In this document: positions 1,188 through 20,386 of the stretch, in pieces | Layout of the letters: each line of letters starts with the position of its first letter | How positions within the stretch are numbered: position 1 is the stretch's first letter | DNA from: Erysipelotrichales bacterium | Lineage (GTDB): Bacteria > Bacillota_I > Bacilli_A > RF39 > UBA660 | Assembly: GCA_022508565.1 (NCBI GenBank) | Contig: JAFLUY010000006.1 | Location: 45,149-109,148, forward strand | Direction of reading: 5' to 3' | Length of the DNA stretch: 64,000 nucleotides | Made by a program: the position numbers and the translations under genes | The notes under the pieces: generated by a model | What the model saw: only the letters and a program-made list of their open reading frames with translations | What the model was told of the DNA's origin: nothing | Databases searched by the model: none

Positions 1188-1220
1188 TTAGTAAATAAAA
1201 AACAAGCATTATTGCTTGTT
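1188..1220 (-). terminator. intrinsic terminator hairpin (AACAAGCA-TTAT-TGCTTGTT) overlapping the stop codon of the 877-aa gene
   Basis: 8-bp inverted repeat followed by a T-run on the minus strand. Confidence 0.5.
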
Positions 1221-4560: not shown

Positions 4561-6762
4561 ATGGCTGAGGTAAAAGTAAAAGTTAAACAATTTTTTAATA
4601 ACCAAATAAGCAAATATAACGTTAATTGTGAATCTTTATATAAAGTACTTGAACAATATCCAAAAGATATTGTGAATATTGTTATGGTATTTTATAAAAG
4701 AGGAGATAATAAATCATATTATTTACTCACCCGTATGTATGGACCAGCATTTGATGGAGAAGCGGCTAAAAGAGATTTATCATATTCGGAAAAAAATGAA
4801 TTAGAGTCTCTATTTAAAAGAATGGAACTGTTTTTAAATTATACTGTCAAGCAAATAGAAAAAGGAGCAAAGCCAGAAGATTTAAAAAAGATTTTTAGAA
4901 AAGCATCAGATGAAGAAATACTTGAACTATTAAAAGAGGATACAGTTGCTGATGTGAATACCGTGATATTTGATTTAGATAATTTTATGAAAACTAATAA
5001 TTTAACAGAAGATACTTTATCAAATATATTAGATTTTCATGATAATAGTGCAGAAAGAATAGCTTACAAAAGAAAACACGGAATTAATTGTAGTAAAATG
5101 AAAGCTGAAGATATTTGTCATACCTTATTTATCGATAATAATATTTTAAAAAGATATATAAAAAATGTTGAAAAGAATTTGCCTAATTTATTAAATAAGG
5201 CAAAAGAAGTTGAAGATAGTTTAAAAGTCTTAGGTTATAACGAAGAAGTTAAAAAGACAGATAAACATATAAAACCAACTGAAGATAAAAAAACAGAAAA
5301 CAATCCTACCCATGAATCACAGGCAAGCGCTGAACCAATTAAAAAAGATAAGACCGGAAAAATAATTGGTAATAATCGACCAAATAAGAGATTTGTTTAC
5401 TTTTTTGCAACTACTGATATGACAGAAGATGAAATAAAAAAACTAGAAGATAAAGTTATTGAAATAGCTTTCCTTTTAAAAGATGTTTGGAAAACAGCGT
5501 TTGATACTATGAGAAAATACTTTGGTGATGATTTACGTGGTACTTTTACAGGTTCTATGGATCCAGAAGATTTTGGACGCTATAGCGGCTTAAAAGATAA
5601 GATAAGAGAATTACAGCACTTAGAAATGGAAGACATCATAAAGAGCTTCTATGAAGCTGGAGAAGAAAAAACAAAAGAAGTTGTAATTGGAAATAAAGGA
5701 CCAGTAAAAAAATTTGTTTTCTTCTTTGCACCAATCGGTATGGATGAAGAAAATGTAAAAGAATTAGAAGATAAAGTTATTAAAATAGCTTTTCTTTTAA
5801 AAGACACTTATAAACAATCATTCGAACTTATGGTAAATTGTTTTGGAAGTGATTTAAGAGGTTGTTATTTAGGAACATTTACTAACAAAGATTATAATCG
5901 TTATAAAGGCTTAATTCATAAAATCAAAGAATTAAAAGTCCTAGACTTAGATGAAATAGAGATTAAACTTGAACAAGAAAAAGAAGCAAAAGAAAAAAGA
6001 AGAAGAGAAGCACCACAAAAACCGCTTGATCCAGATAAATTAATTGGAAACCGTGGCCCAATAAAAAAATTTGTTAATTTATTTGCTACAAATGGAATGA
6101 GCGAAAAAGAAAAAGCAGAAATATTAGATGAAGCAGTAGAAATGGCTTTTTATCTAAGAGATCATAAAGGCAAAAAAATAGGGTTTAATGCAGCTGCTCA
6201 CTTTTTTGGTGAAGATTTAAGACAAGAGTATGTTGGCAAGCTTGATACTAAAATTTATCCTGCTGCCAATAACTTTGCTTATGAAGTCAATTGTCATATT
6301 CATTGGAAAAAGAAAAGTGAACAAGAAAAAGTAGAAAGACTACATAATTATGAAGTTAAATTGGAATACCTTGATTCATTAATACATTTCGAAACGACTA
6401 TTAATAAGAAAAGTCCGTTAGATATTGCTCATGAACTTGATGTTCCAATTCATATTGTTTTAATGTCACTCATAAACAATATTACGCATTATGATATAGC
6501 CAGTATAATTAAATATATTGTAACTCGTCGTCAAGAATATATTGAAACGTTATTAAATTCTGATTATTTTAAACCATTAATGGATGAATTAACATTAATA
6601 GAAAAAAATTTAATATATTTAAAACTATTAAGTGTTTCAAATAAAGATATAACTGATGAATATATATCTAATATGTTAGGAATAACAATAGAAGACATTG
6701 AAAGTTATGAAATCTATAGTGATGATGAAGCCAAAAAATTATTAAGTTTATATTTAAAATAA
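4561..6762 (+). CDS. hypothetical protein with three tandem ~100-aa internal repeats and a sigma-70 region-4-like C-terminal HTH
   Basis: GGGGG RBS. Repeat units begin GNNRPNKRFVYFFATTDMTEDEIKKLEDKVIEIAFLLKD, GNKGPVKKFVFFFAPIGMDEENVKELEDKVIKIAFLLKD and GNRGPIKKFVNLFATNGMSEKEKAEILDEAVEMAFYLRD. The C-terminal segment LTLIEKNLIYLKLLSVSNKDITDEYISNMLGITIEDIES resembles sigma-70 region 4. Confidence 0.7.
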   Translation: MAEVKVKVKQFFNNQISKYNVNCESLYKVLEQYPKDIVNIVMVFYKRGDNKSYYLLTRMYGPAFDGEAAKRDLSYSEKNELESLFKRMELFLNYTVKQIEKGAKPEDLKKIFRKASDEEILELLKEDTVADVNTVIFDLDNFMKTNNLTEDTLSNILDFHDNSAERIAYKRKHGINCSKMKAEDICHTLFIDNNILKRYIKNVEKNLPNLLNKAKEVEDSLKVLGYNEEVKKTDKHIKPTEDKKTENNPTHESQASAEPIKKDKTGKIIGNNRPNKRFVYFFATTDMTEDEIKKLEDKVIEIAFLLKDVWKTAFDTMRKYFGDDLRGTFTGSMDPEDFGRYSGLKDKIRELQHLEMEDIIKSFYEAGEEKTKEVVIGNKGPVKKFVFFFAPIGMDEENVKELEDKVIKIAFLLKDTYKQSFELMVNCFGSDLRGCYLGTFTNKDYNRYKGLIHKIKELKVLDLDEIEIKLEQEKEAKEKRRREAPQKPLDPDKLIGNRGPIKKFVNLFATNGMSEKEKAEILDEAVEMAFYLRDHKGKKIGFNAAAHFFGEDLRQEYVGKLDTKIYPAANNFAYEVNCHIHWKKKSEQEKVERLHNYEVKLEYLDSLIHFETTINKKSPLDIAHELDVPIHIVLMSLINNITHYDIASIIKYIVTRRQEYIETLLNSDYFKPLMDELTLIEKNLIYLKLLSVSNKDITDEYISNMLGITIEDIESYEIYSDDEAKKLLSLYLK

Positions 6763-6864
6763 ATAAGTAAAATTTTATACTAATTATTAGTAATTTATAA
6801 AACTTGTCAAAATAAGCATTATTTGTTATTATATGCTAGAATTTTTAGTAATGAAGGGGTAATT

Positions 6865-7509
6865 ATGATTAAAAAAATAACAAAAATAATAACTGGTCTT
6901 ATTAAGTTATTTTTACAAATGATTATGTTGGTTTTAATTTTTTCGTTTCATAATTTTATAGTATCCAAGATTACACTAGGACTTATATTACTTGCAGTTG
7001 CTTCGACTATCGGAAGACATGTTTATTTTTTAATAAAAAACGCTATTAATCATGTTAAGTTTATAAAGAACATTAAAAGTCTTAATGAAGAAGAAGTTGA
7101 AAAAATAGAAAAAGACCTTGAAACTAAGATTAATTATACCAAAAATAGACTTGATGCTATTCAAAAGGTGGATATTTGTGAAGATGAAGTTATCTTTATT
7201 GACGGATATGTTCCAATAACTGATGAAATTTCTGAAGTAATATCATCAGAAGAATTTGAATCAAGTTACGAAGAATATTTAAAAAAACAAAAAGAAATAC
7301 TTTTAGAAAATAATGCTAATAAAAGAAGTAAATTAAAAAATGAATTAATTGTTCTTTCTTTTAATCTTCAAGAATTAGCAACAAAAAGTTTAATTTCAGA
7401 AAAAGAATCTGATGATATGGAAAGTTTATTACAAAACACGAAAGTTTTAAAAAATTATGAAAAAACAGCTGAAAAGGTTAAAAAATATTCAAGAAAACCA
7501 GTAAGATAA
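6865..7509 (+). CDS. membrane protein, hypothetical
   Basis: AGGGG RBS 6 nt before the ATG at 6865. Two N-terminal TM helices, then a charged coiled-coil-like C-terminus. Confidence 0.6.
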   Translation: MIKKITKIITGLIKLFLQMIMLVLIFSFHNFIVSKITLGLILLAVASTIGRHVYFLIKNAINHVKFIKNIKSLNEEEVEKIEKDLETKINYTKNRLDAIQKVDICEDEVIFIDGYVPITDEISEVISSEEFESSYEEYLKKQKEILLENNANKRSKLKNELIVLSFNLQELATKSLISEKESDDMESLLQNTKVLKNYEKTAEKVKKYSRKPVR

Positions 7510-7530
7510 TAGAAAAAGATGTTTACTTTT

Positions 7531-8409
7531 TCATTCAGAAACATAATTAATTTTAATATGTTTTTTAAGTGTTAAAAATCTGTCTTCTTCTGATTGTAAG
7601 ACAGCTTGAAATAAATTTTCTCGTTCATTTTCATTTATAGGTAGACCATATCTTACTTTTTCTTCAAAAGATAAGCTATTTATTTCTTCAAATCCTTGTA
7701 GTTTATCAAAGTGTAATACACTTTTTGCAGTATTTACTAAAACTCCATCTCCATTAAAGTTGTAACCCATAAGTGCTTGTGACATTCTTAATTCTTCAGT
7801 TAATTTGATTAAATCTTCATTTGCTTCCAAAGATGCAAGTTTATAAATTGAATCAGTAGCTTCTAAATTTGCATTTCTCTCTAAAGCAAGATTTTTCCTA
7901 TCATGTATTCCATACATAATTACACGTATAAAATATCTTATCATTTCTTCTAAGGAATAATTGAAAATATCATGTTTGGAATTAAAAAACATTTTATAAC
8001 AACTTTCTAACATAATACTTGGTGAAACTACTAAATCAGCTTTTATACAAGCTTGATATGCATGTTCAAGTTCATGTGAAAGACCAAATATTGCAATATA
8101 ATTTTTTAAATCATCTGTAGTTCTAAGATAATCTTTAAATAGTTTTAGAAATTGATTGTAATATTTTGTAACAGTTATTATAAAACCATCATAAGAAATA
8201 TTTATAGAGTTATCATTAACACTGAAATGAGGTTTAAAACTTTTATTTAAATCTAAAGAGTAAGAAACAAGTTGTTTTCCGTTCATATCTTTAATAATAA
8301 AGTCATCTAAAAAATTGGCTATAAATGTTTTATCGATACCTTTATTTCTTAAATACTCTAAATGATAATATAAAGATTATAAGTTTTCAGTTTCTTTTAT
8401 ATTTGACAT
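7531..8409 (-). pseudogene. HExxH metallopeptidase-like gene with an in-frame TAA after codon 10 (strong-RBS ATG at 8409, stop at 8377-8379, ORF continues in frame to 7531)
   Basis: AAGAGGAAG RBS before the 8409 ATG, whereas the ORF-track ATG at 8286 has no RBS. The 10-codon upstream ORF (MSNIKETENL) is followed by an in-frame TAA; after it the same frame continues into the 251-aa ORF. HELEH motif in the body. Confidence 0.45.
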
Positions 8410-8506
8410 AAGCTTCCTCTTTTTTTGCTAAGAGATATACTAACATATCGTGATATTAAATACAACAAATTTGAAATATAATAGATTCTATCTAAATAAA
8501 AAAACT

Positions 8507-8546
8507 ACTTTCGCATTTAAGCGATAGTAGTTTTTTATTATTGCTC
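8507..8546 (-). terminator. terminator hairpin downstream of the tRNA pair (AAAAACTACT...AGTAGTTTTT with an internal TCGC/GCGA sub-hairpin)
   Basis: 10-bp inverted repeat flanked by A- and T-runs. Confidence 0.5.
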
Positions 8547-8572
8547 GATAATATTCGAGTTTAGTATTAATT

Positions 8573-8657
8573 TGGTGCGGGTAACAGGAGTTGAACCTGC
8601 ACGGATTACTCCACTAGATCCTAAGTCTAGCGCGTCTGCCAATTCCGCCATACCCGC
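8573..8657 (-). tRNA. tRNA-Leu (anticodon UAG), long variable arm, CCA encoded
   Basis: The reverse complement folds as a cloverleaf: acceptor GCGGGTA/TACCCGC, anticodon stem CTAGA/TCTAG with the loop CTTAGGA. Confidence 0.85.
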
Positions 8658-8664
8658 AAAAAAA

Positions 8665-8741
8665 ATGGTGGATCTTGTAGGACTCGAACCTACGACCGCC
8701 CGGTTATGAGCCGGATGCTCTAACCAACTGAGCTAAAGATC
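8665..8741 (-). tRNA. tRNA with CAU anticodon, most likely tRNA-Ile2 (lysidine); elongator Met not excluded
   Basis: The reverse complement GGATCTTTAGCTCAGTTGGTTAGAGCATCCGGCTCATAACCGG...CCA, by recall, resembles the Bacillus subtilis tRNA-Ile(LAU) more than the elongator tRNA-Met. Confidence 0.8.
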
Positions 8742-8844
8742 CGTGAGCCATTGCTCTATAAATATAACATAATTTTTTTAGTTGTGCAATAACTTTTTGT
8801 CTTGTATTCCAATTTATGTTATTATATTCAGCAGGTGATTAATC

Positions 8845-9588
8845 ATGCTAAAAAGTATATTAAAAAATAAAAATGTATTTATTTTTGATTTAGATGGCAC
8901 ATTAATTGATTCCTTAAATATCTGGAGTACAGTTGATGCGATGATTATTAAAGAAATGACAGGTGCATCAGTTGATTTGTGTCACCTTAGTCTTGAAAGA
9001 GAACAATTTTTAGCAGAATGTAAAAGTAAAAGTCCATATCAAGACTACGTTGTATTTTTAATTGAAAGATATCAATTGGATTGTAATAAAGATGATTTAA
9101 TAGAGTATAGAAAAGGCGTAACATTCAAAATGCTAGAAAGTTTAAAGTTAAAACCATTTGCTTATGAACTACTAACTTTGTTAAAAAGTATGGGTAAAAC
9201 CTTATGTATTGCAACAACAGGCCCAAAAAGCAGTGTAGACCGTATACTTGGAAAAATAGAAGGTACTAAGATTATTGGTTCTTTATTTGATATAGTTATT
9301 ATGCAAAACGATGTAATTAATTTAAAACCAGCACCTGATGCTCATTTTAAAATAAAGGATATGTTGGGTATGGCAGATGCAGATGCTATAGTTATAGAAG
9401 ATTCTATAGTGGGAATTAATGCTGCAAAGCGTGCAAATCTTGATTATATAGTTGTAAGAGAAGATTACCATTCTAACCAAGATGAGATAAGAAATAGTGC
9501 TCCGATTTATGTAGAATCTTTAGAAGAAATCTATAATTCAATGTTAGAAATAGCAAATAATAAGCCGAAATTACGTGAATTATCATAA
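8845..9588 (+). CDS. HAD-family hydrolase (beta-phosphoglucomutase-like)
   Basis: N-terminal FIFDLDGTLIDS motif I and a later DS.VGI..A motif. Confidence 0.75.
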   Translation: MLKSILKNKNVFIFDLDGTLIDSLNIWSTVDAMIIKEMTGASVDLCHLSLEREQFLAECKSKSPYQDYVVFLIERYQLDCNKDDLIEYRKGVTFKMLESLKLKPFAYELLTLLKSMGKTLCIATTGPKSSVDRILGKIEGTKIIGSLFDIVIMQNDVINLKPAPDAHFKIKDMLGMADADAIVIEDSIVGINAAKRANLDYIVVREDYHSNQDEIRNSAPIYVESLEEIYNSMLEIANNKPKLRELS

Positions 9589-9662: not shown

Positions 9663-11273
9663 ATGAAGAAATTTAAATTCGTATCATTATTAATGGTACT
9701 AGCAGTAATGCTATTTGGTGGAGTACTTAATGTAACAGCAGCAGAAAGTATTCCAGACTCAGTTGTTTCCGATGGTTTAAGAGAAGTTGCCTATCTTCAA
9801 AATGAAGGAAAAGCATTCCCAGTAATTATGAAAACAGCTGATAATGGTAAATATTATATTTACTGTATGAATATGTCAGCAACATATGCTGAAGGTGTAA
9901 AATTCACTAAAACAGGAGAAGTAGATCCAGGATATGTATATATTCTAAATGCAAAACTTGGATTAAATGATAAAGATAAAGAATTCTTTATCAAACAAAT
10001 GGCTGTTTGGTTTTATGAAGACTATCTAACTGGTACAGAATTTAACTTAGTTAGAGAAGTAAGAGAATATATTGTCTCAAATGTAAATACTGATCCAGTT
10101 GCAGGAGAAATCTATAAATTATATAATGGCGCAAAACAATATAAGAAAAATATTGATAAATTTGCTGGTAGATTAGAAATAGATAAAAGTGCTGTAACAT
10201 TCACTGTAGATGGTGACTATTATGTATCTAGCAAAATTAAAATTTATCAAGAAAATTTATCCGGAAATATTAAATATTCTTTAACTAGTACACCTGCCGG
10301 ATCTAAAGTAGTTAAAGATGGTGAAGATGGAGTTAGGGTAAAAATACCTACATCTAAAATACCAGAAGGAAAGCAATTAACATTTACTTTAAATGTTGAA
10401 GGATCTTATATAAAATATACTGGATATTATTATTATCACAGTAATAAATATCAAAAGATGTTATTCCAAGAACCATTAGAAGCTAAAGAGGTTTTAAAAG
10501 ATAGCATAACAATGAATATTAAACATTATAAAGAAAATCATGAAATTAACATTAGTAAGACTGATGTTACTCAATCACATGAAGTGCCTGGTGCAACTTT
10601 AGTAGTTAAAGATGCCAATGGTAAAGAAATTGAATCATGGATTTCAACTAATGAATCTCATAAAATCACTTTAAAAAGTGGTGAATATAGTTTAACTGAG
10701 ACATTAGCACCTACAGGATATAAATTATCAAAAGTAACAATTTATTTTAAAATTGATGTACTTGGTGGTATATATATTAAGAATGAAAATGGTAACTATG
10801 TAAATGTTGATAAAGTAGTTATGATAAACGAACTTATTGATGTTGTAAGCGTTGCTAAGAAAGATTCTAAAACAGGAAAATATGTTAGCGGTGCTAAATT
10901 AGTTATTAAAGATGAAAAAGGAAATGTAATAGAAGAATTTACAACTAACGATACTGTTCACAGATTATCATTAAAGAGTGGTAAATATACTTTATCTGAA
11001 GTTAGTGCTCCAGTTGGATATTTACTAAGTGATGAAATTATAGAATTCGAAGTGTTTGAAGATGGAACACTTAGAGTTATGAATAATAAAGGGGATTACG
11101 TTGATAGTGCTATTTTAACTTTCTACAATACACCAGAAAGTGAAAAATCAGAAACTATAATTGACGTAGAAGTTCCAGCTACTGGAAAAACTGCTACTTT
11201 ATTAATAGTTGGTGGTATAGCACTATTAATTGGTGGAATTGCTTGTGCAAAGAAAACAATTAAAGAATGCTAA
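9663..11273 (+). CDS. sortase-anchored surface adhesin with a putative thioester (TED) domain, two CnaB-type domains and a VPATG cell-wall sorting signal
   Basis: GGGGAAGAGGAAAAA RBS, signal peptide. YCMNM and KQMAVW motifs are candidates for the Cys/Gln thioester pair. Two SpaA/CnaB-like repeats (GAKLVIKDEKGNVI...SGKYTLSEVSAPVGY). C-terminal VPATG, a hydrophobic stretch and a KK tail. Confidence 0.65.
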   Translation: MKKFKFVSLLMVLAVMLFGGVLNVTAAESIPDSVVSDGLREVAYLQNEGKAFPVIMKTADNGKYYIYCMNMSATYAEGVKFTKTGEVDPGYVYILNAKLGLNDKDKEFFIKQMAVWFYEDYLTGTEFNLVREVREYIVSNVNTDPVAGEIYKLYNGAKQYKKNIDKFAGRLEIDKSAVTFTVDGDYYVSSKIKIYQENLSGNIKYSLTSTPAGSKVVKDGEDGVRVKIPTSKIPEGKQLTFTLNVEGSYIKYTGYYYYHSNKYQKMLFQEPLEAKEVLKDSITMNIKHYKENHEINISKTDVTQSHEVPGATLVVKDANGKEIESWISTNESHKITLKSGEYSLTETLAPTGYKLSKVTIYFKIDVLGGIYIKNENGNYVNVDKVVMINELIDVVSVAKKDSKTGKYVSGAKLVIKDEKGNVIEEFTTNDTVHRLSLKSGKYTLSEVSAPVGYLLSDEIIEFEVFEDGTLRVMNNKGDYVDSAILTFYNTPESEKSETIIDVEVPATGKTATLLIVGGIALLIGGIACAKKTIKEC

Positions 11274-11889
11274 GATAACCCTTAGTATTCTTTTTTCCTT
11301 AATAGGAATTGCATTACTATTTTATAGTTATTTTGCTGGTATTAAAAGTAATTTATTTAACTATAAAAATATTAAATTGATGGAACAACAAGTATTAATA
11401 ACTGAAGCTTTAGCTGAAGTAAATGATACTGATTTAGAAGGGATATATGTTGATCCTGAAGATGATTTAAGTGCTGATAGAGCTGATAATTATATCGGAT
11501 ATCTAGAAGTACCAGATGTAAATATAAAAAGGGGATTTGTTTCATTAAACTCCAAATACAATAGTGTTGGATATAATGTAATGTTAATTGAAGGATCAAC
11601 AATGCCTGATGTTAAAAATGGTAATCTGATATTAGCAGCACATCGTGGTAATTCAGCTGTTTCATTCTTTGATAAATTATATAAATTATCTGATGGTGCA
11701 TATGCTTATGTTACTTATCATGGTAAAGTATATAAATATCAATTGAAATCAAGATATTATGAAAATAAAGATGGGGTCTTAACCATCAAAAGAAATGCAG
11801 AAGCTAGTGTTCTAACACTAATTACCTGCACAAGAGATGATAAAACTACACAAACAATATTCATATTTGAACTTGTTAGTGTAGATTAG
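11245..11889 (+). CDS. sortase (transpeptidase) overlapping the 3' end of the adhesin gene; start uncertain (GTG 11245 or TTG 11230)
   Basis: N-terminal TM anchor, LAAHRGN His motif, TLITCT Cys motif. No in-frame ATG before the TM segment. Confidence 0.7.
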   Translation: MQRKQLKNAKITLSILFSLIGIALLFYSYFAGIKSNLFNYKNIKLMEQQVLITEALAEVNDTDLEGIYVDPEDDLSADRADNYIGYLEVPDVNIKRGFVSLNSKYNSVGYNVMLIEGSTMPDVKNGNLILAAHRGNSAVSFFDKLYKLSDGAYAYVTYHGKVYKYQLKSRYYENKDGVLTIKRNAEASVLTLITCTRDDKTTQTIFIFELVSVD

Positions 11890-11905
11890 AAGGGAAGTTA
11901 ATAGT

Positions 11906-12586
11906 ATGCCAGAATTAAGTTTAATAGAAATAATTAAATATTCATTAAATTCATTATTTAATTCTGAAGTATTTATTCTTGTTATTTTAGAACTTGCAAT
12001 ATTAATAATTGCATTAGTATTCAAAAAATTAATGGATAAAAAAATTGTTGGGATGACTAGTATTATAGCTAGTTTAATAGTATTAAGTTTTTATATTTCT
12101 AATTATGTTAATACATTATTAACATTCTTAAATAACGTATCTACTAAACTTGTTGAATTAATTTATTTTCCAACAACTTTAGAGTTTATGTTAGTTATGA
12201 TTATATCATTTGGAATAATGATTGGAACATATTTTAAAAAAGAAGTTAAAAATTATATAAAAGTAATTAATACTGTTTTACCATTAACAATTTCATTCTT
12301 ATTCTTATCAATAATAGAATATATTAATGTTAATAGTGTTCCATTTGATGAGTTTAGTGTATTTACTAATCCAGTATTAATGAGTTTATATGAACTTGCT
12401 ATGGGATTATTTATTTCTTGGTTAATTGGTCTTATAGTTATAAAGATTGATAAATATATAATTGAATCTTTAACAGCTACTGTAACAAACGAAGAACCAG
12501 AAGAGGTTTTAGATTTAGTTACTGTTAACTTACCAGTAGAAGATGAAATAGAATTACCTAAGCTAAAAAATGGAGTGTTAAAATAA
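11906..12586 (+). CDS. polytopic membrane protein, hypothetical
   Basis: GAAGGGA RBS, about 5 predicted TM helices. Confidence 0.55.
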   Translation: MPELSLIEIIKYSLNSLFNSEVFILVILELAILIIALVFKKLMDKKIVGMTSIIASLIVLSFYISNYVNTLLTFLNNVSTKLVELIYFPTTLEFMLVMIISFGIMIGTYFKKEVKNYIKVINTVLPLTISFLFLSIIEYINVNSVPFDEFSVFTNPVLMSLYELAMGLFISWLIGLIVIKIDKYIIESLTATVTNEEPEEVLDLVTVNLPVEDEIELPKLKNGVLK

Positions 12587-12621
12587 AATTTACCTTATGG
12601 TAAATTTTTTTGGAGGAAAAT

Positions 12622-13668
12622 ATGGACGAAAAAGAAATCTTAGAGACTAAATATAAATTTTTTGAGTGTTTAATAGAATATAAAGAGCTAATAGAAGAAT
12701 ATTCTAAATTGGTACATAATTCTAGTGTTAAAATTAAAAGGTGTCTAGAGCGGTCTTATAATGCTAAAGATATTGCTAATGTTCGTTTTAAAAATATTGA
12801 AAACATGTTACACAATAAGCTTGTGTTTTTAGCAAAATTTTTTAACCAAAGAAATATAAATATGTTTTATTTTCAAAACCCTGAAGACGGTCAAGTATAT
12901 GCTGTTAATTTCTTTGGTAAACATATTCTTGGATACTATACATCATATTTTTCTCATTGTTTTGATTTAATTGCAGATGTCACTGATTTAACTGAAAAAT
13001 TAGCTAAAAGAATTGCTATTTATCCTTTTTGTCATAGTATAACTGCTCTATGTTCAAAGATTAACAATGGAAATGTTTATTCTTATGATAAAAAGTGTTT
13101 AGAGATAATTGCTGAGATACAACAAAAATATGCAGAGTATATTGAACTTGAAGAAAATTTATACAAAAATACACTTGATGGTGAATATCTAGATATGGTT
13201 AAATTTTATATTATTTTGATTCTTGGACAATCTAATAATAAAAAATATACTGAAGATGAGATTGGAGTATACTATCTAATTGATTGTGATTTTTGTAGAG
13301 TTTTTGGTCGCGAAGACCTTATTGAAGAAATTACAAAGATATATAAAGATTGTATGGAAAAAATGGGCTATGATCCTGAATTAATAGAGGATGATAAAAC
13401 TCCTTTCTTTACTAAATATGTTGATCCGAACTTTGATCCTCGAGAATTTATTTATAAAAGCATATCAGAACTAGCTGCTTATAAAGTAAGAAATGATTTT
13501 GCACAAATTGATGCATTATTTAAAGAAATGGCAGCATCAATTCCTTTAGCTGAAGAAGCAATTGAAAATTTAGAATTTAGTAATGATTCCTTAATGGGAG
13601 AGGATAATAAAGAAGATAATATTGGAGAAGAAGTAGGAACAGAAGAACAAATAAAAAGAATTCATTAA
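12622..13668 (+). CDS. hypothetical cytoplasmic protein (349 aa)
   Basis: GGAGGA RBS 5 nt upstream of the ATG at 12622. No recognisable motif. Confidence 0.55.
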   Translation: MDEKEILETKYKFFECLIEYKELIEEYSKLVHNSSVKIKRCLERSYNAKDIANVRFKNIENMLHNKLVFLAKFFNQRNINMFYFQNPEDGQVYAVNFFGKHILGYYTSYFSHCFDLIADVTDLTEKLAKRIAIYPFCHSITALCSKINNGNVYSYDKKCLEIIAEIQQKYAEYIELEENLYKNTLDGEYLDMVKFYIILILGQSNNKKYTEDEIGVYYLIDCDFCRVFGREDLIEEITKIYKDCMEKMGYDPELIEDDKTPFFTKYVDPNFDPREFIYKSISELAAYKVRNDFAQIDALFKEMAASIPLAEEAIENLEFSNDSLMGEDNKEDNIGEEVGTEEQIKRIH

Positions 13669-15332
13669 GAATTCTTTTTATTTGTTATTTCTTCTTCAGT
13701 ATCTTCAATTAATACTGCATGGACAACATGTCTTGTAGTATGTGAAAAACATGTTGATAATGTTAGTATTTTTGAATTGGCATTTAGTGGAACATTAAAG
13801 TTTTTCTTACTACGCGCTACTAACATATTTAAGAAATTCATATATTCTTCATCACTAACAAATTCGTTTTTCAAATAATCTTCTGTTTCATTAATTTGAT
13901 ATAATGAGAAAATTTGCCATTTCATATTTTTAGTCTGGGTATTAAATGTAATGATTTGGTTAGATGTATTGTTATACCAATTTTTATTCATCATGTTTTT
14001 GATTGTTCCAAACATTATACCTTGTTTAATATTATGTCCATATATAATTGTATTTCTATCTAAATTTTCTGGATCATTACGATAATCCATAAATATCCAA
14101 CCCATACTATTTTTCTTTTTGTAATAGTCACGATTTAAATAGTAAGAATTTGTCTCAGCTTGAACAACCGGATAGTTAATTTTTGTATTATTTACTTGAA
14201 CCCAACCAACTGTGTCATTATTTATTTTAAGCAAGTTTTCAAATACTTGGTCAAAATTTGTGTAATAAGATGAAATATAGTTACTTTTCTTTTTAGTAGT
14301 AGTTTCGGAATCGATATCTATATAATCTACATCACTTTCCGAATCATCAATATCTAAATATTCTTCAGACTCTTTTAAGATTGATTCAATATCAATAAGC
14401 TCTGATTCAATTTTATTTTGATCTTTATATTGTTGATAACTGTTTATTACTACGATAAGAGAACTTAAAATAATGATAAATAAAATAATAGATGTAAACA
14501 TTTTAAAGTTAATTTGTTTTATGAAATTAACTCTTTTATATTCTTTTGAGTAATTAAGTCTAAATCTAATATTATTTTCTTCAAAATATTTATGATATGT
14601 TTTCTTTAAATAATTAACCGAATTATATATTGAATTTAAATCATTATTTTTTTCATTAGTTTCAATCGTAATATTTCCTTTTTTATTTTCGATTATTTCG
14701 TTAACAATCGTTGTTAGTATTTCATTAGAGTAGGACACTATTTTTATTACTCTTAGTTTTGAATTTAGATTCATAAACATTTTAAATTCTTCTAAATCTT
14801 TTGAATCAAATTCGTGACTAATAACAATATATTTTTTATAATAAATATCCGAATAACTCATAAGTTCATTTATAATCATAAACTTAGAAGATGTGTTAAT
14901 ATTATTTCTGATTTTTACTTTAATATTTTTATTCATATCTAATCTTTCAACTAAATATGCAGGTATTTCAAAACATTCTATTTCTTCAATATAGTTATTA
15001 TCTGATAAAAGTAAGAATATATCGAGATTTATAGTTTTATCTGGTTTAAAAATAATTGTTTTAATATAAGAACATTCATTGATCAGTTTTAATACTGTTG
15101 ATGCAATTTCAAAATTATTGATTTGAAGTTTTGTTATATTTCCTTTAAGTATTACTAGATTAATAAAGTTAGAGACTAGTTCAAAATTTTCTTCAATATA
15201 AGGTTTTGAAAACTTCAAATCTTTGATATCGATAATATTAGTATTGTTTAAACTTTTATAGTCGACATCTTTTTTTACTTTTGAAACTATAAGAGTATTT
15301 GTTGATATTTTAAAATCGATATTATAGTTCAT
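13665..15332 (-). CDS. class B-like sortase with a 270-aa N-terminal cytoplasmic extension (LRR-like) preceding the TM anchor
   Basis: C-terminal half has class-B sortase hallmarks (VGWVQV..NYPVVQ, NSMGWIFMDYRN, IYGHN, TLSTC). A single TM segment (FTSIILFIIILSSLIVVI) lies at about residue 280. Confidence 0.7.
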   Translation of the reverse strand: MNYNIDFKISTNTLIVSKVKKDVDYKSLNNTNIIDIKDLKFSKPYIEENFELVSNFINLVILKGNITKLQINNFEIASTVLKLINECSYIKTIIFKPDKTINLDIFLLLSDNNYIEEIECFEIPAYLVERLDMNKNIKVKIRNNINTSSKFMIINELMSYSDIYYKKYIVISHEFDSKDLEEFKMFMNLNSKLRVIKIVSYSNEILTTIVNEIIENKKGNITIETNEKNNDLNSIYNSVNYLKKTYHKYFEENNIRFRLNYSKEYKRVNFIKQINFKMFTSIILFIIILSSLIVVINSYQQYKDQNKIESELIDIESILKESEEYLDIDDSESDVDYIDIDSETTTKKKSNYISSYYTNFDQVFENLLKINNDTVGWVQVNNTKINYPVVQAETNSYYLNRDYYKKKNSMGWIFMDYRNDPENLDRNTIIYGHNIKQGIMFGTIKNMMNKNWYNNTSNQIITFNTQTKNMKWQIFSLYQINETEDYLKNEFVSDEEYMNFLNMLVARSKKNFNVPLNANSKILTLSTCFSHTTRHVVHAVLIEDTEEEITNKKNS

Positions 15333-15390
15333 ACTTACTAGTCCTCTCTATTATTAATATTAACATATTTCTTATATATTTTCTATTAAA

Positions 15391-15437
15391 TTATCAAATA
15401 ATTAGATTTGACATATTATATAATTAAGTGTTATTAT
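15391..15437 (+). promoter_or_regulatory. candidate sigma-A promoter for the T-box/thrS transcript (TTGACA at 15408 with an 18-nt spacer and TATTAT)
   Basis: Hexamer match by eye; an alternative -35 lies at 15391. Confidence 0.35.
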
Positions 15438-15448
15438 ATGGGTGTAAA

Positions 15449-15652
15449 TCGATGAAGAAGGATACGATTATTAATTAGTCACTTAAAGAGAGTTTATGGT
15501 TGGTGGAAATAAACAGGAAGATTAATAGTTACTACCTTTTAAGAGAATTAATAAATTCCGGCTAATTACCGTTATTAAATTAAAGTAAGCTAAACTAAGG
15601 AATGGTACCGTGCTATGCACTTCTTGTATCATTCCTTTTTTTGTTTCTCAGG
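15449..15652 (+). promoter_or_regulatory. T-box riboswitch leader with a Thr (ACC) specifier and intrinsic terminator
   Basis: AGAGAG box near 15488, ACTACC specifier region near 15530, T-box sequence AAGGAATGGTACCGTG at 15597-15612, terminator AGGAATG...CATTCCT plus T7 at 15598-15650. Confidence 0.7.
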
Positions 15653-15659
15653 GGGTCTT

Positions 15660-16073
15660 ATGAAGAATATTGCTATTGATGATTATGTTGGAATGTCTAT
15701 GGCAGAGTTTTTACTTAATTATGCCAATTTAGATGATGATTTATCAACTGAACAAGTATTGGATATGGAGACAGCAAAGTTAACGCATCAAGATTTAACC
15801 AAACTTGGTTTACCTTATATAAAAAGGGTTCCGGTTGAGATTGTCACCGAAAATGATATATCTTCAGGCAAAATACTCATTGTCTATGATTTTAAAAGCA
15901 CAAAAAGTAATAAAAGGTGTGCGCCTTACTTAAGACCTGCATATGTTAAACAACTTGAGGAAGAGCAGTTAGCTTATATGCATCAAGATTGTGATGATGA
16001 TTCAAGACAGTCAAATGAAAAACAAACTTTAATAAGTAAAAAAGAAAAAATTAGAAAGAGGGAATTAAAATGA
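15660..16073 (+). CDS. small hypothetical protein (137 aa) between the T-box terminator and thrS; stop overlaps the thrS ATG (ATGA)
   Basis: GGGGG RBS 5 nt before the ATG at 15660. The ORF-track start at 15615 lies inside the terminator hairpin and was rejected. Confidence 0.55.
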   Translation: MKNIAIDDYVGMSMAEFLLNYANLDDDLSTEQVLDMETAKLTHQDLTKLGLPYIKRVPVEIVTENDISSGKILIVYDFKSTKSNKRCAPYLRPAYVKQLEEEQLAYMHQDCDDDSRQSNEKQTLISKKEKIRKRELK

Positions 16074-17836
16074 TTAATTTTAAAGAAGATGAAAGATTAA
16101 ATAAGTTAAATCATAGTTGTGCACATTTAATGGCACAAGCTGTTAAACACTTATTTCCAGATGCAAAATTCTGGGTAGGTCCAGTTATTGAAACAGGTTT
16201 TTACTATGATATTGATTTAGGAGATAAAGTTATTAATGATGAAGATATTGAAGCTATCTCTAAAGAAATGAAAAAACTTGTAAAAGATGGAAAAAGAATT
16301 GTTAGAAATGAAATTTCTAAAGCAGAAGCATTAGACCAATTTAAAGATGATGAGTATAAAATTGATTTAATATCAAGAATGGACGAAAACGAAGTAACTA
16401 TTAGTACTTATACTCAAGGAGATTTTACTGACCTATGTCGTGGACCACATGTTGATACAGTTAAAGAATGTAAGTATTTTAAACTTATCAAATTTAGTGG
16501 AGCATACTGGAAGGGTGACGTAAATAATAAAGTTTTACAAAGAATCTATGGAGTATGTTTTGATACAGAAGAAGATTTAAATAATTATTTACAAGAACTT
16601 GAAGATGCTAAAAACAGAGATCACAGAAAACTTGGTAAAGAATTAGGCCTTTTCATGACTAGTGATCTTGTAGGCAAGGGTCTTCCAATGTATTTACCAA
16701 ACGGTTATGTAATTTGGGATGAATTCGAAAGATATATTAAAGAAAAAGAAAGAAAATTAGGCTATAAGCATGTTTTAACTCCACCACTTGGAAATGTTGA
16801 GTTATATAAGACAAGTGGACACTGGGAACATTATAAAGATGGAATGTTTCCTAAAATGGAAGTTGAAGGAGAAGAATTTGTACTTCGTCCAATGAATTGT
16901 CCACATCATATGATGATTTATGCAAATGATATTCATTCCTATCGTGATTTACCACTTCGTATTGGAGAAGTTGCAAGAGATTGTCGTTTCGAATCAAGCG
17001 GTTCTTTAAAAGGAATTGAAAGAGTAAGATCATTTTGTCAAAATGATGCGCATCTTTTTGTAACTCCAGAACAAATTGAGTCTGAATTTAAAGCAGTAGT
17101 TAATTTAATATTGGAAGTTTATAAAGATCTTAATATTACCGATTACCACTTTGAGTTATCTTTAAGAGATAAAGAAGATAAAATTAAATATCATCCAGAC
17201 GATGAAATGTGGGATAATGCAGAAAATAAATTAAGAGAAGTATTAGATAGTATTGGTATACCTTATGTTGAAAGAATTGGCGAGGCAGCATTCTATGGAC
17301 CAAAACTTGATGTTCAAGTAAAACCAGCTGTTGGAAACGAATATTCTTTATCAACATGCCAACTAGACTTCTGTTTGCCAGCACGTTTTGATTTAACTTA
17401 TGTAGATAGTGATGGCAATAAAAAGACTCCTGTTGTTCTTCATAGAGCAATTCTTGGTAGTATAGATAGATTCATAGCTTATTATCTAGAAGAGACTAAG
17501 GGAGCTTTACCACTTTGGTTAAGCCCAGTTCAAGTTTCAGTATTACCTGTTAATAATGAATATCATTTAGAATATGCAAAGAAAGTAACAGAATTGTTGC
17601 AAGTTAATGATATAAGAGTAGAACTTGATAGTAGAGAAGAAAAACTAGGTTATCGTATGAGAGAAAGTCAAATGCGTAAAATACCTGTGTCACTAGTCTT
17701 AGGTAATAATGAAAGAGATGAAGAAACTGTAACTTTAAGATTCTATGGTAGTGAAGATAAGAAAACAATGCCTTTAGATGAATTCGTTTCATATATTAAG
17801 GAAAATAAAGAAAAAAGAACTAGAGTTTTAAATTAG
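16070..17836 (+). CDS. thrS: threonyl-tRNA synthetase lacking the N-terminal TGS (N1) domain
   Basis: HSCAHLMAQA editing-domain motif at residue about 15, class II aaRS core, C-terminal anticodon-binding domain. Collinear with ThrRS from a later point in the protein. Confidence 0.95.
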   Translation: MINFKEDERLNKLNHSCAHLMAQAVKHLFPDAKFWVGPVIETGFYYDIDLGDKVINDEDIEAISKEMKKLVKDGKRIVRNEISKAEALDQFKDDEYKIDLISRMDENEVTISTYTQGDFTDLCRGPHVDTVKECKYFKLIKFSGAYWKGDVNNKVLQRIYGVCFDTEEDLNNYLQELEDAKNRDHRKLGKELGLFMTSDLVGKGLPMYLPNGYVIWDEFERYIKEKERKLGYKHVLTPPLGNVELYKTSGHWEHYKDGMFPKMEVEGEEFVLRPMNCPHHMMIYANDIHSYRDLPLRIGEVARDCRFESSGSLKGIERVRSFCQNDAHLFVTPEQIESEFKAVVNLILEVYKDLNITDYHFELSLRDKEDKIKYHPDDEMWDNAENKLREVLDSIGIPYVERIGEAAFYGPKLDVQVKPAVGNEYSLSTCQLDFCLPARFDLTYVDSDGNKKTPVVLHRAILGSIDRFIAYYLEETKGALPLWLSPVQVSVLPVNNEYHLEYAKKVTELLQVNDIRVELDSREEKLGYRMRESQMRKIPVSLVLGNNERDEETVTLRFYGSEDKKTMPLDEFVSYIKENKEKRTRVLN

Positions 17837-17863
17837 TAAGTGAAAAATCACTTACTTTTTTTA
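17837..17863 (+). terminator. intrinsic terminator after thrS (GTAAGTGA-AAAA-TCACTTAC plus T7)
   Basis: Perfect 8-bp stem followed by a T-run. Confidence 0.6.
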
Positions 17864-17955
17864 TGTATTTATAAAAAAATATATTAATAGTCCTAACAAA
17901 ATAGGGCATTTCCAAACAAATTTACATTTCTTTTTAATTTTTTGTTAAAAAGTAG

Positions 17956-17996
17956 TTGACAAATTATTTTGATATTAATATAATGTTAATAACAAG
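17956..17996 (+). promoter_or_regulatory. sigma-A promoter (TTGACA-17-TATAAT) with an overlapping conserved 21-mer TAATATAATGTTAATAACAAG (palindromic core TGTTAATAACA); candidate NrtR operator
   Basis: Consensus hexamers. The 21-mer is identical to a second copy at 22994-23014. Confidence 0.6.
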
Positions 17997-18071
17997 AGAC
18001 AAGACTCTTGAAAAATTTTAAGTTCTATTATTAACAAAATAATAATAACAAATATGAAGGAGAGATGAATT

Positions 18072-18824
18072 ATGAATAATAACAAAGAACAAAGAGAAAT
18101 TTTAAGATTAATTAGAAAGATGAATCCAGAGCAAAGGGAAATTTTTGACGGATTACTTGAAGATGTTAAAAAATTATCAAATGAAGCAAAAGAAAAGGGG
18201 GTAACTGAAAAACAATTTACTAAAGCTTTATTTATAGTAGATATGAATAATGGGTTTGTTAATTTCGGAGCTATGGCTAATACAGAATATAATGCTTTAG
18301 TTCCTGAACAGCTTAAACTAATTGAAAGATTTAGGAAAGAACAACAATTAGTAAACTTCATTTTAGAAGGACATATTGAAGAAGCAGTTGAGTTCTTACT
18401 ATACCCACAACATTGTGTATTAGGAACACCTGAAGCAGAATTAATTCCAGAGTTTAAAGATGAACAAGATAAAGAAAATACAAAAGTTTATTATAAAAAC
18501 TCAATTAATGGAGCATTAAACTTAGACTTACAAATTGATTTAGAAGACTTACGTGATTTAAAAGAAATAGTTGTTTGTGGAGTATGTACAGATCTATGTG
18601 TATTAGATTTTGTAAGAACACTTGCAAGATACTTAGATGAAATTAATCACAAAGTTCAAATCTTTGTTGTAGCAAGTGTATGTAGTACATTTGATGCTCC
18701 AGGACATGAAAGAACTGAAGAAGAAAAACTAGCTTATAGAATGATGAGAGCTGCTGGTGTTGAAGTAGTAGCCAATATGGAAGAACTAGAACAAAGAGAG
18801 AAAGTTTTAGGCTTAGCAGCTTAA
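18072..18824 (+). CDS. pncA: nicotinamidase, isochorismatase family, with a 45-aa N-terminal extension
   Basis: AAGGAGAG RBS. ALFIVDMNNGF and VCGVCTDLCV catalytic-Cys motif. Confidence 0.75.
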   Translation: MNNNKEQREILRLIRKMNPEQREIFDGLLEDVKKLSNEAKEKGVTEKQFTKALFIVDMNNGFVNFGAMANTEYNALVPEQLKLIERFRKEQQLVNFILEGHIEEAVEFLLYPQHCVLGTPEAELIPEFKDEQDKENTKVYYKNSINGALNLDLQIDLEDLRDLKEIVVCGVCTDLCVLDFVRTLARYLDEINHKVQIFVVASVCSTFDAPGHERTEEEKLAYRMMRAAGVEVVANMEELEQREKVLGLAA

Positions 18825-18843
18825 ATATTAGGAGGAAAATATT

Positions 18844-20370
18844 ATGAAATTATATAACGGTTATGAAAATGAAAGATTAGCAAGAAATTATACATTATTA
18901 AGTGATCAATATCAATTCAATATGGGGTGTGGTTATTTAGTATCAGGGAAAAAAGATACAGAAGCAGTGTTTGATGTTTTCTTTAGAAAGGTTCCAACTA
19001 ATGGTGGATATGCTGTAATGGCAGGTTTAGATAAAATAATTCCATTCATTCAAAACTTAAAATTTGATGAAAGAGATTTAGATTATTTTAGAAGAAATAA
19101 TTATCCAGAGGAATACATTGAATATTTAAAAAACTTTAAATTTCATGGAACAATTACTGCTATTCCTGATGGAACACCAGTATTTCCAAATGAGCCATTA
19201 ATCACAGTTAAAGCTCCAATTATTGAAGCTCAAATATTAGAAACTTGTATTTTATCAATAATTAATGGCGCTATGGAGCACGCAACAGGAGCTAGAAGAA
19301 TAATTGAAGCAACTCCAGATAAAAAAGATGTAATTGTTTTTGATGCTTCAGACTTTAGAAAACCTAAAGACCCAAAAGCAGTTATGGAATTTGGTTTAAG
19401 AAGAGCAGATGGACCCGAAGCTGGTATCGATGCTTCTATTTATGGAATTATGGCAGGATGCGCTGGAACTAGTAATGTAATGGTTGCTAATATGCTAAAT
19501 ATTAAAGCAATGGGCACAATGGCTCACTCATGGATTGAAGCATTTGATTCAGAATATGAAGCATTCTTAAACTATGCAAAAATATATCCACAAGCTTGTA
19601 CTTTACTTGTTGATACATTTGATACTTTAAAAAGTGGTGTGCCAAATGCAATTAAAGTATTTGAATATATGAAAGAAAATGGAATGTCTCTTGATAACAT
19701 TGGTATTCGTATAGATTCTGGAGATCTAGCTTATTTATCAAAAGAAGCAAGACGCATGTTAGATGCTGCAGGATTTCCACAAGCTAAAATTTGCTTAAGT
19801 AATGGTCTTAACGCAAATACAATTGAAGATTTAACTAGACAAGGTGCTTGTTTTGACACTTTAGGAGTTGGAGATAATATTAGTAAGCCTGAAGGAAGAA
19901 TGGGTTGTGTATATAAACTTGTTGCTGAAAATGTAAATGGTATATGGCAACCAAAAATAAAATTAAGTGATTCTGAAATTAAAATTGTTAACCCAGATCA
20001 TAAAACATTATATCGCGCTTATGATAAAACCACGGGTTATGCACTAGCAGATATAATGACAAGACAAGGAGAAATCGTTAGCAATGATGATTTAATCATT
20101 ATTGATCCAGCTAATGCAAGCAAAAGTACAAAACTTAATAATTTCGAATTAAGAGAATTACATAAACCTATATTTGTAAATGGTGAACTAGTTTATGATG
20201 ACCCTAATATCGAAGTTAAAAAAGATTATTGTAATAACGAAATGGCTACACTTTATCCAGAAGTTAGAAGAACTACTAGTCCTCATCTATATCATGTGTC
20301 AGGTACAGAGGATTATGTTAAATTTAAACAAGAATTAATTGAACATCATAAAAGCCTAGTGTTAAAATAA
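18844..20370 (+). CDS. pncB: nicotinate phosphoribosyltransferase
   Basis: AGGAGG RBS. 508 aa; the N-terminal YQFNMGCGY region and overall length fit the NAPRTase family. Confidence 0.85.
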   Translation: MKLYNGYENERLARNYTLLSDQYQFNMGCGYLVSGKKDTEAVFDVFFRKVPTNGGYAVMAGLDKIIPFIQNLKFDERDLDYFRRNNYPEEYIEYLKNFKFHGTITAIPDGTPVFPNEPLITVKAPIIEAQILETCILSIINGAMEHATGARRIIEATPDKKDVIVFDASDFRKPKDPKAVMEFGLRRADGPEAGIDASIYGIMAGCAGTSNVMVANMLNIKAMGTMAHSWIEAFDSEYEAFLNYAKIYPQACTLLVDTFDTLKSGVPNAIKVFEYMKENGMSLDNIGIRIDSGDLAYLSKEARRMLDAAGFPQAKICLSNGLNANTIEDLTRQGACFDTLGVGDNISKPEGRMGCVYKLVAENVNGIWQPKIKLSDSEIKIVNPDHKTLYRAYDKTTGYALADIMTRQGEIVSNDDLIIIDPANASKSTKLNNFELRELHKPIFVNGELVYDDPNIEVKKDYCNNEMATLYPEVRRTTSPHLYHVSGTEDYVKFKQELIEHHKSLVLK

Positions 20371-20386
20371 AGAAAGGAATAAAGAC

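Follow-up and report, generated by a model that had tools for sequence, protein, structure and literature searches.

Here, we describe a five-gene cluster that lies between a HAD hydrolase gene and thrS in a 64,000-nucleotide stretch of Erysipelotrichales bacterium DNA (contig JAFLUY010000006.1), referred to below, at its full length, as the window. From the HAD side to thrS, the genes encode a surface adhesin, a small sortase, a protein with five transmembrane (TM) segments (the 5-TM protein), and a 352-aa open reading frame (ORF), all on the plus strand, followed by a long class B sortase (SrtB) in convergent orientation on the minus strand. The cluster is conserved across many uncultured gut Bacilli and Erysipelotrichales, and we consider it probable, if by no means certain, that it serves as a conserved surface-display cluster of these low-GC bacteria. 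Its adhesin belongs to a known kind, and the new variants are the architecture of the long SrtB and possibly the small sortase, which has a glutamine where other sortases have their catalytic arginine; we found neither of them described in Pfam, among NCBIfam names, or in the searchable literature. In the usual description, a sortase is a simple enzyme that an N-terminal anchor tethers. What we found is a whole class B sortase family with a conserved, folded cytoplasmic domain of 270 residues that has no known relatives.

A class B sortase with a conserved N-terminal domain

The long sortase gene (positions 13665-15332, minus strand) encodes a protein of 555 aa, which scores 181.3 bits on the NCBIfam model TIGR03064 (cutoff 153.75) over aa 344-533. 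This bears out the original prediction, made from the DNA letters alone, that the motifs NYPVVQ, GWIFMDYRN, IYGHN, and TLSTC of a convergent sortase are class B hallmarks. Its catalytic domain, as delimited with phmmer, spans aa 358-546 (13695-14261, minus strand) and contains His433 (in YGHN), Cys528 (in TLSTC), and Arg534 (in TRHVVHA), all three of which are invariant in 24 homologues and align with the Staphylococcus aureus SrtB residues. In fact, phmmer matched the catalytic part to the SrtB structures from S. aureus, Bacillus anthracis, Clostridioides difficile, and Listeria monocytogenes with E-values from 1e-32 to 1e-38, and the weakest match (7e-24) was to the pilus enzyme Spy0129. Ahead of the catalytic domain, there is an acidic extracellular linker (aa 300-357; 14262-14435, minus strand), which is modelled at low confidence (pLDDT below 50 for aa 323-357), and ahead of this a single TM anchor (aa 278-299; 14436-14501, minus strand), located by TM prediction after the K/R-rich segment KEYKRVNFIKQINFK and contained within a modelled helix of residues 263-321.

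The remainder of the protein, aa 1-272 (14517-15332, minus strand), forms an N-terminal domain with the look of a β/α solenoid and with a conserved LNNTN[IV]I motif. No signal peptide is found in this region, and it is the N-terminal side of the TM segment that is flanked by lysine and arginine residues. Because of the positive-inside rule, and because the catalytic domain must be extracellular, we infer that the N-terminal domain is cytoplasmic, which agrees with the roughly 270-aa cytoplasmic region that had been proposed to precede a single TM segment.

We also weighed whether the 555-aa ORF might be an artefact, with two genes having been fused through an error of sequencing or assembly. 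Nothing spoke in favour of this, and against it stand more than 120 independent full-length homologues, drawn from NCBI, ENA, JGI, and Logan assemblies, which are 545-577 aa long and share 58-77% identity over 98-100% of their length. Moreover, the same architecture is found in the genomes of 64 species, and, in the alignment of homologues, the N-terminal domain is conserved as strongly as the catalytic one. An artefact is thus so improbable that we set it aside, the frameshift that the original prediction had named as a possible refutation is disposed of by the homologues, and the long enzyme is the product of a single gene and, for all its additional conserved domain, a true class B sortase.

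We also ran phmmer exhaustively with aa 1-270 against 1.84 billion representative sequences. This returned 146 clusters (at 50% identity), in which the match always lies at the very N-terminus of the protein. All members of at least 469 aa end in the manner of a class B sortase (TLxTC, YGHN, and/or a ...LVVHAKL tail), and the shorter ones, which break off in the TM segment or the linker, look truncated. Among the 146 clusters, there was no instance of the N-terminal domain in an architecture other than a SrtB fusion. When modelled alone with AF2, the domain gave a pLDDT of 87 and a pTM of 0.76, and the model opens with a β-hairpin cap, after which come about eight units, each made of a β-strand and a helix and 24-30 residues long. 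A Foldseek search with this model listed leucine-rich repeat (LRR) proteins (tropomodulin, NLRP3, NLRC4, and SKP2), with TM-scores of only 0.2-0.3, and a Pfam search of 31 diverse N-terminal domains at E ≤ 1 returned scattered single matches, with no LRR and no consistent family among them. Of the earlier term 'LRR-like', the solenoid architecture therefore stands, at least as the AF2 model has it, and the model would loosely resemble the LRRs of the RI type; membership in an LRR family does not, and we use the term for the architecture and not for a demonstrated relationship. Searches of the literature for a class B sortase that bears a domain in the cytoplasm or at its N-terminus likewise gave nothing specific.

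Scanning one genome per species with two peptide patterns from the N-terminal domain, we collected 64 loci, all from metagenome-assembled genomes (MAGs) of uncultured gut Bacilli, 'Tenericutes', or Firmicutes, with human, mouse, rabbit, goat, sheep, and deer as hosts, though a few of these records carry evidently wrong bin labels. Long SrtBs are, as a family, common among the uncultured Bacilli from the guts of humans, mice, rabbits, and ruminants. We then set the adjoining genes, as seen in 20-kb neighbourhoods, against a tree built from 59 long SrtBs of full length. For 27 of the 59 species, which comprise the clade of the window and its sister clade (about 43-50% identity), the genes for the adhesin, the small sortase, and the 5-TM protein lie convergent with the long SrtB gene and immediately downstream of it. 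Another 16 species, which are basal (clade A), have no small sortase; here, a secreted protein with an NPxTG signal (once SPKTG and once NPKTA) is encoded directly upstream of the long SrtB. The last 16 loci have no adjacent substrate, and 14 of these have enough flanking sequence to judge. Among the basal members (loci L047-L064, with the long SrtB at about position 10001), the neighbouring signals, found at about 8.3-10 kb, include NPKTG, NPDTG, NPETG, NPNTG, and SPKTG. The passenger domains of these NPxTG proteins are unrelated, and in some pairs the similarity is confined to the final 35-40 residues, distinctive tails such as KKKKYI, KFPQA, and NLFRSI included. We also asked whether the type of tail follows the SrtB clade, but discarded this comparison as uninformative, since the same would be expected from vertical inheritance. 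Where a long SrtB has no substrate next to it, we noticed several secreted proteins nearby whose signal peptides resemble each other (…ILL…VGFA…), encoded at 11677-13050 and 17018-18319 in locus L009 and at 11446-12939 in locus L012; their C-termini read GNGYAKIT(Y)L(G)K, and no sorting signal was seen in them.

Because the basal members adjoin NPxTG proteins, which have the classic signal of the SrtB type, the long SrtB is most likely a wall-anchoring enzyme. As for its N-terminal domain, the most economical reading would be that of a protein-protein docking or regulatory module, which might localise the enzyme or engage partners or the tails of substrates. The presence of such a domain implies that the anchoring of surface proteins can couple to the cell interior, be it through localisation, regulation, or substrate selection, and the N-terminal domain offers a defined domain with which such coupling can be tested. 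A bolder form of this reading makes the domain a receptor that renders sorting partner-dependent, with a companion in a sortase family that would work with a His-Cys-Gln active site in place of His-Cys-Arg. Here, the domain would dock either the sorting-signal tails of substrates or a partner, such as the 5-TM protein or the secretion or division machinery, and, if true, the sortase would recognize its clients from either side of the membrane. Hints in its favour are that the N-terminal domain is as conserved as the catalytic domain and that the NPxTG neighbours have only their C-terminal 35-40 residues in common, yet we regard the receptor as doubtful, with the balance well against it.

A predicted thioester and isopeptide adhesin

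The adhesin gene (9663-11273, plus strand) encodes 536 aa, and its ORF, its match to Pfam SpaA, its homologues (more than 100 of full length), and its relatedness to the B. anthracis protein BaTIE identify the product as a member of the thioester/isopeptide (TIE) family of surface adhesins. With this, the gut commensals add a member to the adhesins that bind covalently by a thioester. Its signal peptide was read from the sequence as aa 1-27 (MKKFKFVSLLMVLAVMLFGGVLNVTAA; 9663-9743, plus strand), has a hydrophobic segment at aa 1-19, and sits in an N-terminus that is like those of the homologues. The Pfam SpaA/CnaB match (PF17802, E 1.6e-25) falls in two stretches, and we aligned the adhesin with 26 homologues that reach down to 43% identity. 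As the ORF, Pfam, and TM prediction established, the signal peptide, YCMNM, KQMAVW, two CnaB/SpaA domains, and VPATG are all where the original prediction had seen them.

A thioester domain (TED) that appears class-II-like is placed at about aa 28-285 (9744-10517, plus strand), where the family profile aligns with the TED region of BaTIE. When the adhesin family profile was compared with solved structures, BaTIE (PDB ID: 6FWV) was the best relative, and SpyCatcher/CnaB2 was also found. In this alignment, TQMAVW pairs with TQLAVW of BaTIE, Gln264 with Gln266, and Lys299 with the isopeptide lysine Lys297. Three motifs described for BaTIE can be recognized in the adhesin, the first being YCMN (aa 67-70), which fits the [YFL]CΦζ motif as defined earlier (PMC6194298) and contains the predicted thioester cysteine Cys68 (codon 9864-9866, plus strand), invariant in the 26 homologues. 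The second is KQMAVW (9993-10010, plus strand; Gln112 and Trp116), a variant of TQxxΦW that aligns with TQLAVW of BaTIE, for which the consensus of the homologues is TQMAVW, with an invariant glutamine and with tyrosine in place of the tryptophan in the most distant homologues. The third is KYQKML, a ΦQζΦΦ motif with the invariant Gln264 (codon 10452-10454, plus strand), predicted to form the thioester. In BaTIE, the thioester joins Cys71 to Gln266, while the glutamine and tryptophan of TQxxΦW adjoin the bond and are themselves not bonded (PMC6194298). We therefore predict from the alignments that the thioester pair is Cys68-Gln264 and that Gln112 is not the bond partner, because the TQxxΦW glutamine of BaTIE is bond-adjacent and unbonded. 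In this respect, the earlier proposal of a thioester-domain protein held, as Pfam TED (PF08341) matches 22 of the 26 aligned homologues, several of them above the 22-bit cutoff and with the match beginning at the cysteine motif, whereas its pairing of the cysteine with the KQMAVW glutamine gave way to the invariant Gln264 that aligns with Gln266 of BaTIE. Moreover, the spacing between Cys68 and Gln264 is 196 residues (195 in BaTIE), and, because of this spacing and of an aligned β-sandwich insert, the TED appears to be of the class II type. Two observations weigh against this reading of the domain: Pfam TED gave no match at E ≤ 0.01 with the window adhesin itself, and the BaTIE alignment does not span the cysteine region of the adhesin. 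A single-sequence phmmer search of the TED region against the PDB returned noise only, and it was the family profile alone that reached BaTIE.

The TED is followed by two isopeptide domains, the first at aa 293-392 (10539-10838, plus strand) with the triad Lys299, Glu346, and Asn389, and the second at aa 393-492 (10839-11138, plus strand) with Lys399, Glu446, and Asn489; the first matches Pfam SpaA, as does the second over aa 395-473. In the alignment of the 26 homologues, Lys299/Asp301/Glu346/Asn389 and Lys399/Asp401/Glu446/Asn489 are all invariant, as are Cys68, Gln112, and Gln264. Taken as a mechanism, the signal peptide suggests that the adhesin is exported by Sec, and homology to BaTIE together with the invariant residues suggests that it then forms, by itself, the Cys68-Gln264 thioester and, in its stalk, two Lys-Asn isopeptide bonds. 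The thioester would then allow the covalent binding of a ligand, as in other TIE proteins.

At its C-terminal end, the adhesin has a cell-wall sorting signal (11172-11270, plus strand) that consists of VPATG, a TM segment, and the basic tail AKKTIKEC, and the consensus of the signal across the family is VPxT[GDSE]. A second protein with a sorting signal was not found in the 64-kb window, and related loci likewise have one per cluster. A 13-bp hairpin with a T-run (11262-11293, plus strand) spans the adhesin stop codon (11271-11273) and lies within the small sortase gene, at its 5′ end. It recurs in 12 species of the same clade as the window, where it shows structure-preserving substitutions and z-scores of -4.4 to -7.7 relative to shuffled sequences, and is absent from the sister clade. 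By its position and structure, the hairpin may be an attenuator that gives more adhesin than sortase. We noticed, too, that the adhesin tail (11247-11270), K(K/R)TIKEC with an invariant terminal cysteine, is better conserved than the TM segment before it, and that the proteins of the sister clade end in ...KKC. This conservation may stem from the overlap with the sortase frame and from the hairpin, and not from selection on the protein; because its codons are dual-coding and lie in a conserved hairpin, the conserved KTIKEC is poor evidence for recognition of the tail.

The small overlapping sortase and the proposed processing of the adhesin

The small membrane-anchored sortase (11230-11889, plus strand; Pfam Sortase, E 9.5e-16) has 219 aa when read from TTG at 11230, though an alternative start, GTG at 11245, stands behind GGTGGA, 29 nt inside the adhesin gene, and is the likely one by this context. 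With either start, the gene overlaps the adhesin stop at 11271-11273, as had been predicted for a sortase with TLITC. The protein has an N-terminal TM anchor and the motifs AxHxG and TLITC, but its scores on the NCBIfam models are far below every class cutoff, among them those for class C (48.8 versus 160), class D (29.5 versus 165), and the SrtD exception model (39.6 versus 140), and it fits no established class. His138, Cys200, and Gln208 are invariant among 26 sequences from 24 species, with Gln208 being located in TTQTIF (aa 206-211; 11845-11862, plus strand). The segment after the cysteine follows the pattern C-T-[RK]-x-D-K-x-T-Q-T-[IV]-[FY]-I, in which a basic residue is conserved at Cys+2. 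In profile alignments against the PDB, the best relatives were of class C/D (PDB IDs: 4D7W and 4D70, and the Ebp class C sortase), and these alignments stop at or just past the cysteine of the small sortase. In the alignment with 4D70, a 'sortase family protein', the arginine of TCTNRGKDR, which we take by analogy with other sortases to be the catalytic β8 arginine, is placed opposite the threonine directly before Gln208. Unlike class C sortases with their C-terminal anchor, the small sortase terminates 19 residues past its cysteine and so has no C-terminal TM segment, and no class C lid motif was seen in it. If the enzyme is active, its glutamine in the place of an arginine held to be essential bears on the catalytic mechanism of sortases.

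In the mechanism that we favour, the C-terminal TM segment would hold the adhesin in the membrane until a sortase cuts VPAT|G and joins the adhesin to peptidoglycan. As to which of the two sortases may do so, we look mainly to the way the genes are paired. Wherever the module occurs, which is in 27 loci, the small sortase gene overlaps that of the adhesin at its end, as it also does in the loci that were collected by starting from the adhesin, and the small sortase is paired with a VPxT-signal protein in every genome examined. It is because of this strict, translationally coupled pairing with VPxT proteins that we favour the small sortase as the enzyme that would cut VPAT|G, an assignment that we think somewhat better than even. 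One locus (L044) contains a second small His-Cys-Gln sortase, whose gene overlaps the end of the gene for another SpaA-domain protein; the signal of that protein is VPSTF, and the long SrtB is 8 kb away. This second module (17292-20653, minus strand) also includes a camelysin/TasA-like protein (PF12389), a weakly matching S26 signal-peptidase-like protein, and a List_Bact_rpt protein.

The principal rival to the small sortase is the long SrtB. The original prediction had held that a class B sortase handles the adhesin, as happens with Spy0129 and the VPPTG signal of Cpa, and in this case the small sortase would be a non-catalytic accessory, for example a chaperone or adaptor. A number of findings speak for this and thus count against our preferred assignment. 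Among the 26 small sortases, no arginine follows the cysteine except at Cys+2 in some sequences, and with a glutamine for the catalytic arginine, the protein might be inactive or an accessory factor. Next, the class B enzyme Spy0129 accepts VPPTG (PMC3019223), and the P1′ position of the adhesin family, which varies among G, D, S, and E, is closer to class B motifs (NPQTN and NPKSS) than to those of class C/D, a non-Gly P1′ being typical of class B signals; in addition, VPxTG differs from the NPxTG of clade A at the first position only. Then there is gene order. The long SrtB adjoins the module in 27 species, also with different flanks, and loci found from two distant adhesin homologues (43-48% identity) have the same order within different flanking genes, namely adhesin, overlapping sortase, membrane protein of about 226-241 aa, optional spacer, and convergent long sortase. 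That the four genes stay together in spite of differing flanks hints that the long SrtB and the adhesin module are linked in function. The neighbourhoods compared here were of 20 kb each. Still, the small sortase retains invariant His and Cys residues, unlike typical pseudoenzymes, and is translationally coupled to its VPxT substrates, among them the L044 protein at a distance of 8 kb from the long SrtB. The long SrtB, for its part, is retained in the loci of 18 species without a nearby adhesin, and its catalytic domain is nearest to the anchoring SrtBs specific for NPxTx and farthest from Spy0129. That a class B sortase handles the adhesin is, then, not established, and we judge the chances to be against it, if not heavily so.

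A further alternative is a relay similar to that of pili, in which the small sortase, being class C/D-like, would use a lysine to join adhesin molecules among themselves or with another protein, after which the long SrtB would anchor the product. Consistent with this, the solved structures most closely related to the small sortase include pilus sortases of class C, two sortases are encoded in one cluster, and the paralogous small sortase of L044 stands beside the weak S26 signal-peptidase-like gene, which recalls SipA of FCT loci. Yet no signal of a shaft or basal pilin is present in the 64-kb window or in the related clusters, the adhesin being the single protein with a sorting signal in the former, nor was a pilin motif seen. 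The small sortase also lacks the lid and C-terminal TM segment of class C, and its class C score is less than a third of the cutoff. We find such a relay improbable, and processing of the adhesin by the small sortase remains the reading that we prefer.

Surroundings of the cluster and comparison with known systems

The 5-TM protein (226 aa; 11906-12586, plus strand) was delineated by TM prediction and co-occurrence, and in related loci it is always found with the adhesin and the small sortase. It has no match in Pfam, NCBIfam, or the PDB, and its 364 homologues are all unannotated. Next to it, the 352-aa ORF (12610-13668, plus strand) encodes a cytoplasmic protein without a Pfam or NCBIfam match, and in most related loci it is either absent or only 22-28% identical. 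Because it has no family, is poorly conserved, and is missing from many clusters, we treat it as a putative variable spacer gene outside of the cluster core. The stop codons of this ORF and of the long SrtB gene are convergent and overlap, and they are covered by a perfect 18-bp palindrome (AACAAATAAAAAGAATTC...GAATTCTTTTTATTTGTT; 13646-13686, strandless), which looks like a bidirectional terminator.

Proteins identical to those of the cluster are recorded for an Erysipelotrichales bacterium MAG (locus tags J1F35_04740-04750). The window itself is low-GC chromosomal DNA (about 26%) without compositional anomaly, and the genes around the cluster are of a housekeeping kind (NAD salvage, PRPP synthetase, and an LtaS-type sulfatase). 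We considered a mobile island and rejected it, as the synteny with HAD and thrS is conserved and a GC anomaly is absent. The LtaS-type sulfatase in the window, along with LytR_cpsA_psr in one related locus (L068), points to the context of a Gram-positive envelope. Another lineage (L065, at 5615-9102, and likewise L066 and L067) has a mobile element inserted beside the cluster, with genes for a Mob_Pre relaxase and a serine recombinase (Resolvase plus Recombinase) standing directly upstream of the adhesin gene. On the thrS side of the cluster, a conserved ORF of 152 aa, located within 15333-16073, runs into the start of thrS (16070-17836) with an overlap of 4 nt, and Rfam detected no T-box leader upstream of thrS. 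For the window as a whole, Rfam reported three tRNAs only, with no T-box or other element near the cluster; two tRNA genes (8576-8657 and 8669-8742, both minus strand) lie left of the HAD gene. Farther upstream, there are two large ORFs of 877 aa (1209-3842, minus strand) and 733 aa (4561-6762, plus strand), neither of which has a Pfam match at E ≤ 1e-5.

Among known systems, we compared the cluster with the FCT region of Streptococcus pyogenes, which the original prediction had named as its likeness. Cpa has class I TEDs, and the genes of FCT loci include those for SipA and for both shaft and basal pilins. With Cpa and Spy0129, the window shares a thioester adhesin, CnaB-type domains, a signal of the VPPTG type, and a class B sortase in the locus (PMC3019223). 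However, the TED of the window adhesin appears class-II-like, and the Cpa chains in the PDB match only its CnaB region. Moreover, pilus_ancill_1 (NF033396) reaches 37.2 bits, far below its cutoff of 600, and covers only aa 306-382 of the adhesin, and there is no shaft pilin. A SipA/LepA-like gene was not found either, given that the ORFs neighbouring the cluster gave no match to Peptidase_S26 or to another Pfam family. With Spy0129 also being the most distant of the SrtB structures, the resemblance to an FCT pilus was not upheld.

As for class C/D sortases, the small sortase is like them in its His and Cys motifs (AxHxG and LITC) and its N-terminal TM anchor, and differs in having a glutamine for the arginine, in lacking a lid and a C-terminal anchor, and in being paired with a VPxT signal, not LPxTG or LPNTA. 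The canonical SrtBs (S. aureus, PDB ID: 1NG5; B. anthracis, PDB IDs: 2OQW and 1RZ2; and C. difficile, PDB IDs: 5GYJ and 4UX7) share with the long SrtB the His-Cys-Arg residues and the class B signature, with E-values of 1e-35 to 1e-38, and they, too, are co-located with apparent substrates, the NPxTG of the neighbours of the basal members matching NPQTN, NPKTG, and (S/P)PxTG; in the window, the sole signal nearby is VPATG, which has a sortase of its own. The difference lies in that canonical enzymes start with their membrane anchor, whereas in the long family the anchor stands between a conserved, folded domain of 272 aa and an acidic linker of about 58 aa. The only precedent that we found for such an extension is the class E sortase SrtE1 of Streptomyces coelicolor, in which 100-200 aa precede the TM segment on the cytoplasmic side; this region is needed in vivo and, as its authors suggest, may contact other proteins (PMC5148588). 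According to the same authors, extensions of this kind are absent from nearly all other sortases (PMC5148588). But SrtE1 is of class E, not B, and comes from another phylum, its extension is variable, with acidic and basic patches and no conserved solenoid, and no sequence relationship to the long SrtB was detected.

The closest likeness for the adhesin is found in BaTIE (BasC/BA5258). Both proteins have an N-terminal TED of what appears to be class II type, a stalk of CnaB-type isopeptide domains, and sortase anchoring, and the motifs [YFL]CΦζ, TQxxΦW, and ΦQζΦΦ are present in the adhesin as well (PMC6194298). Here, the similarity of the TEDs is distant (domain E-value of 6e-4), and the window adhesin has two isopeptide domains where BaTIE has three, VPATG in place of LPATG, KQMAVW in place of TQxxΦW, and a dedicated sortase gene that overlaps its own.

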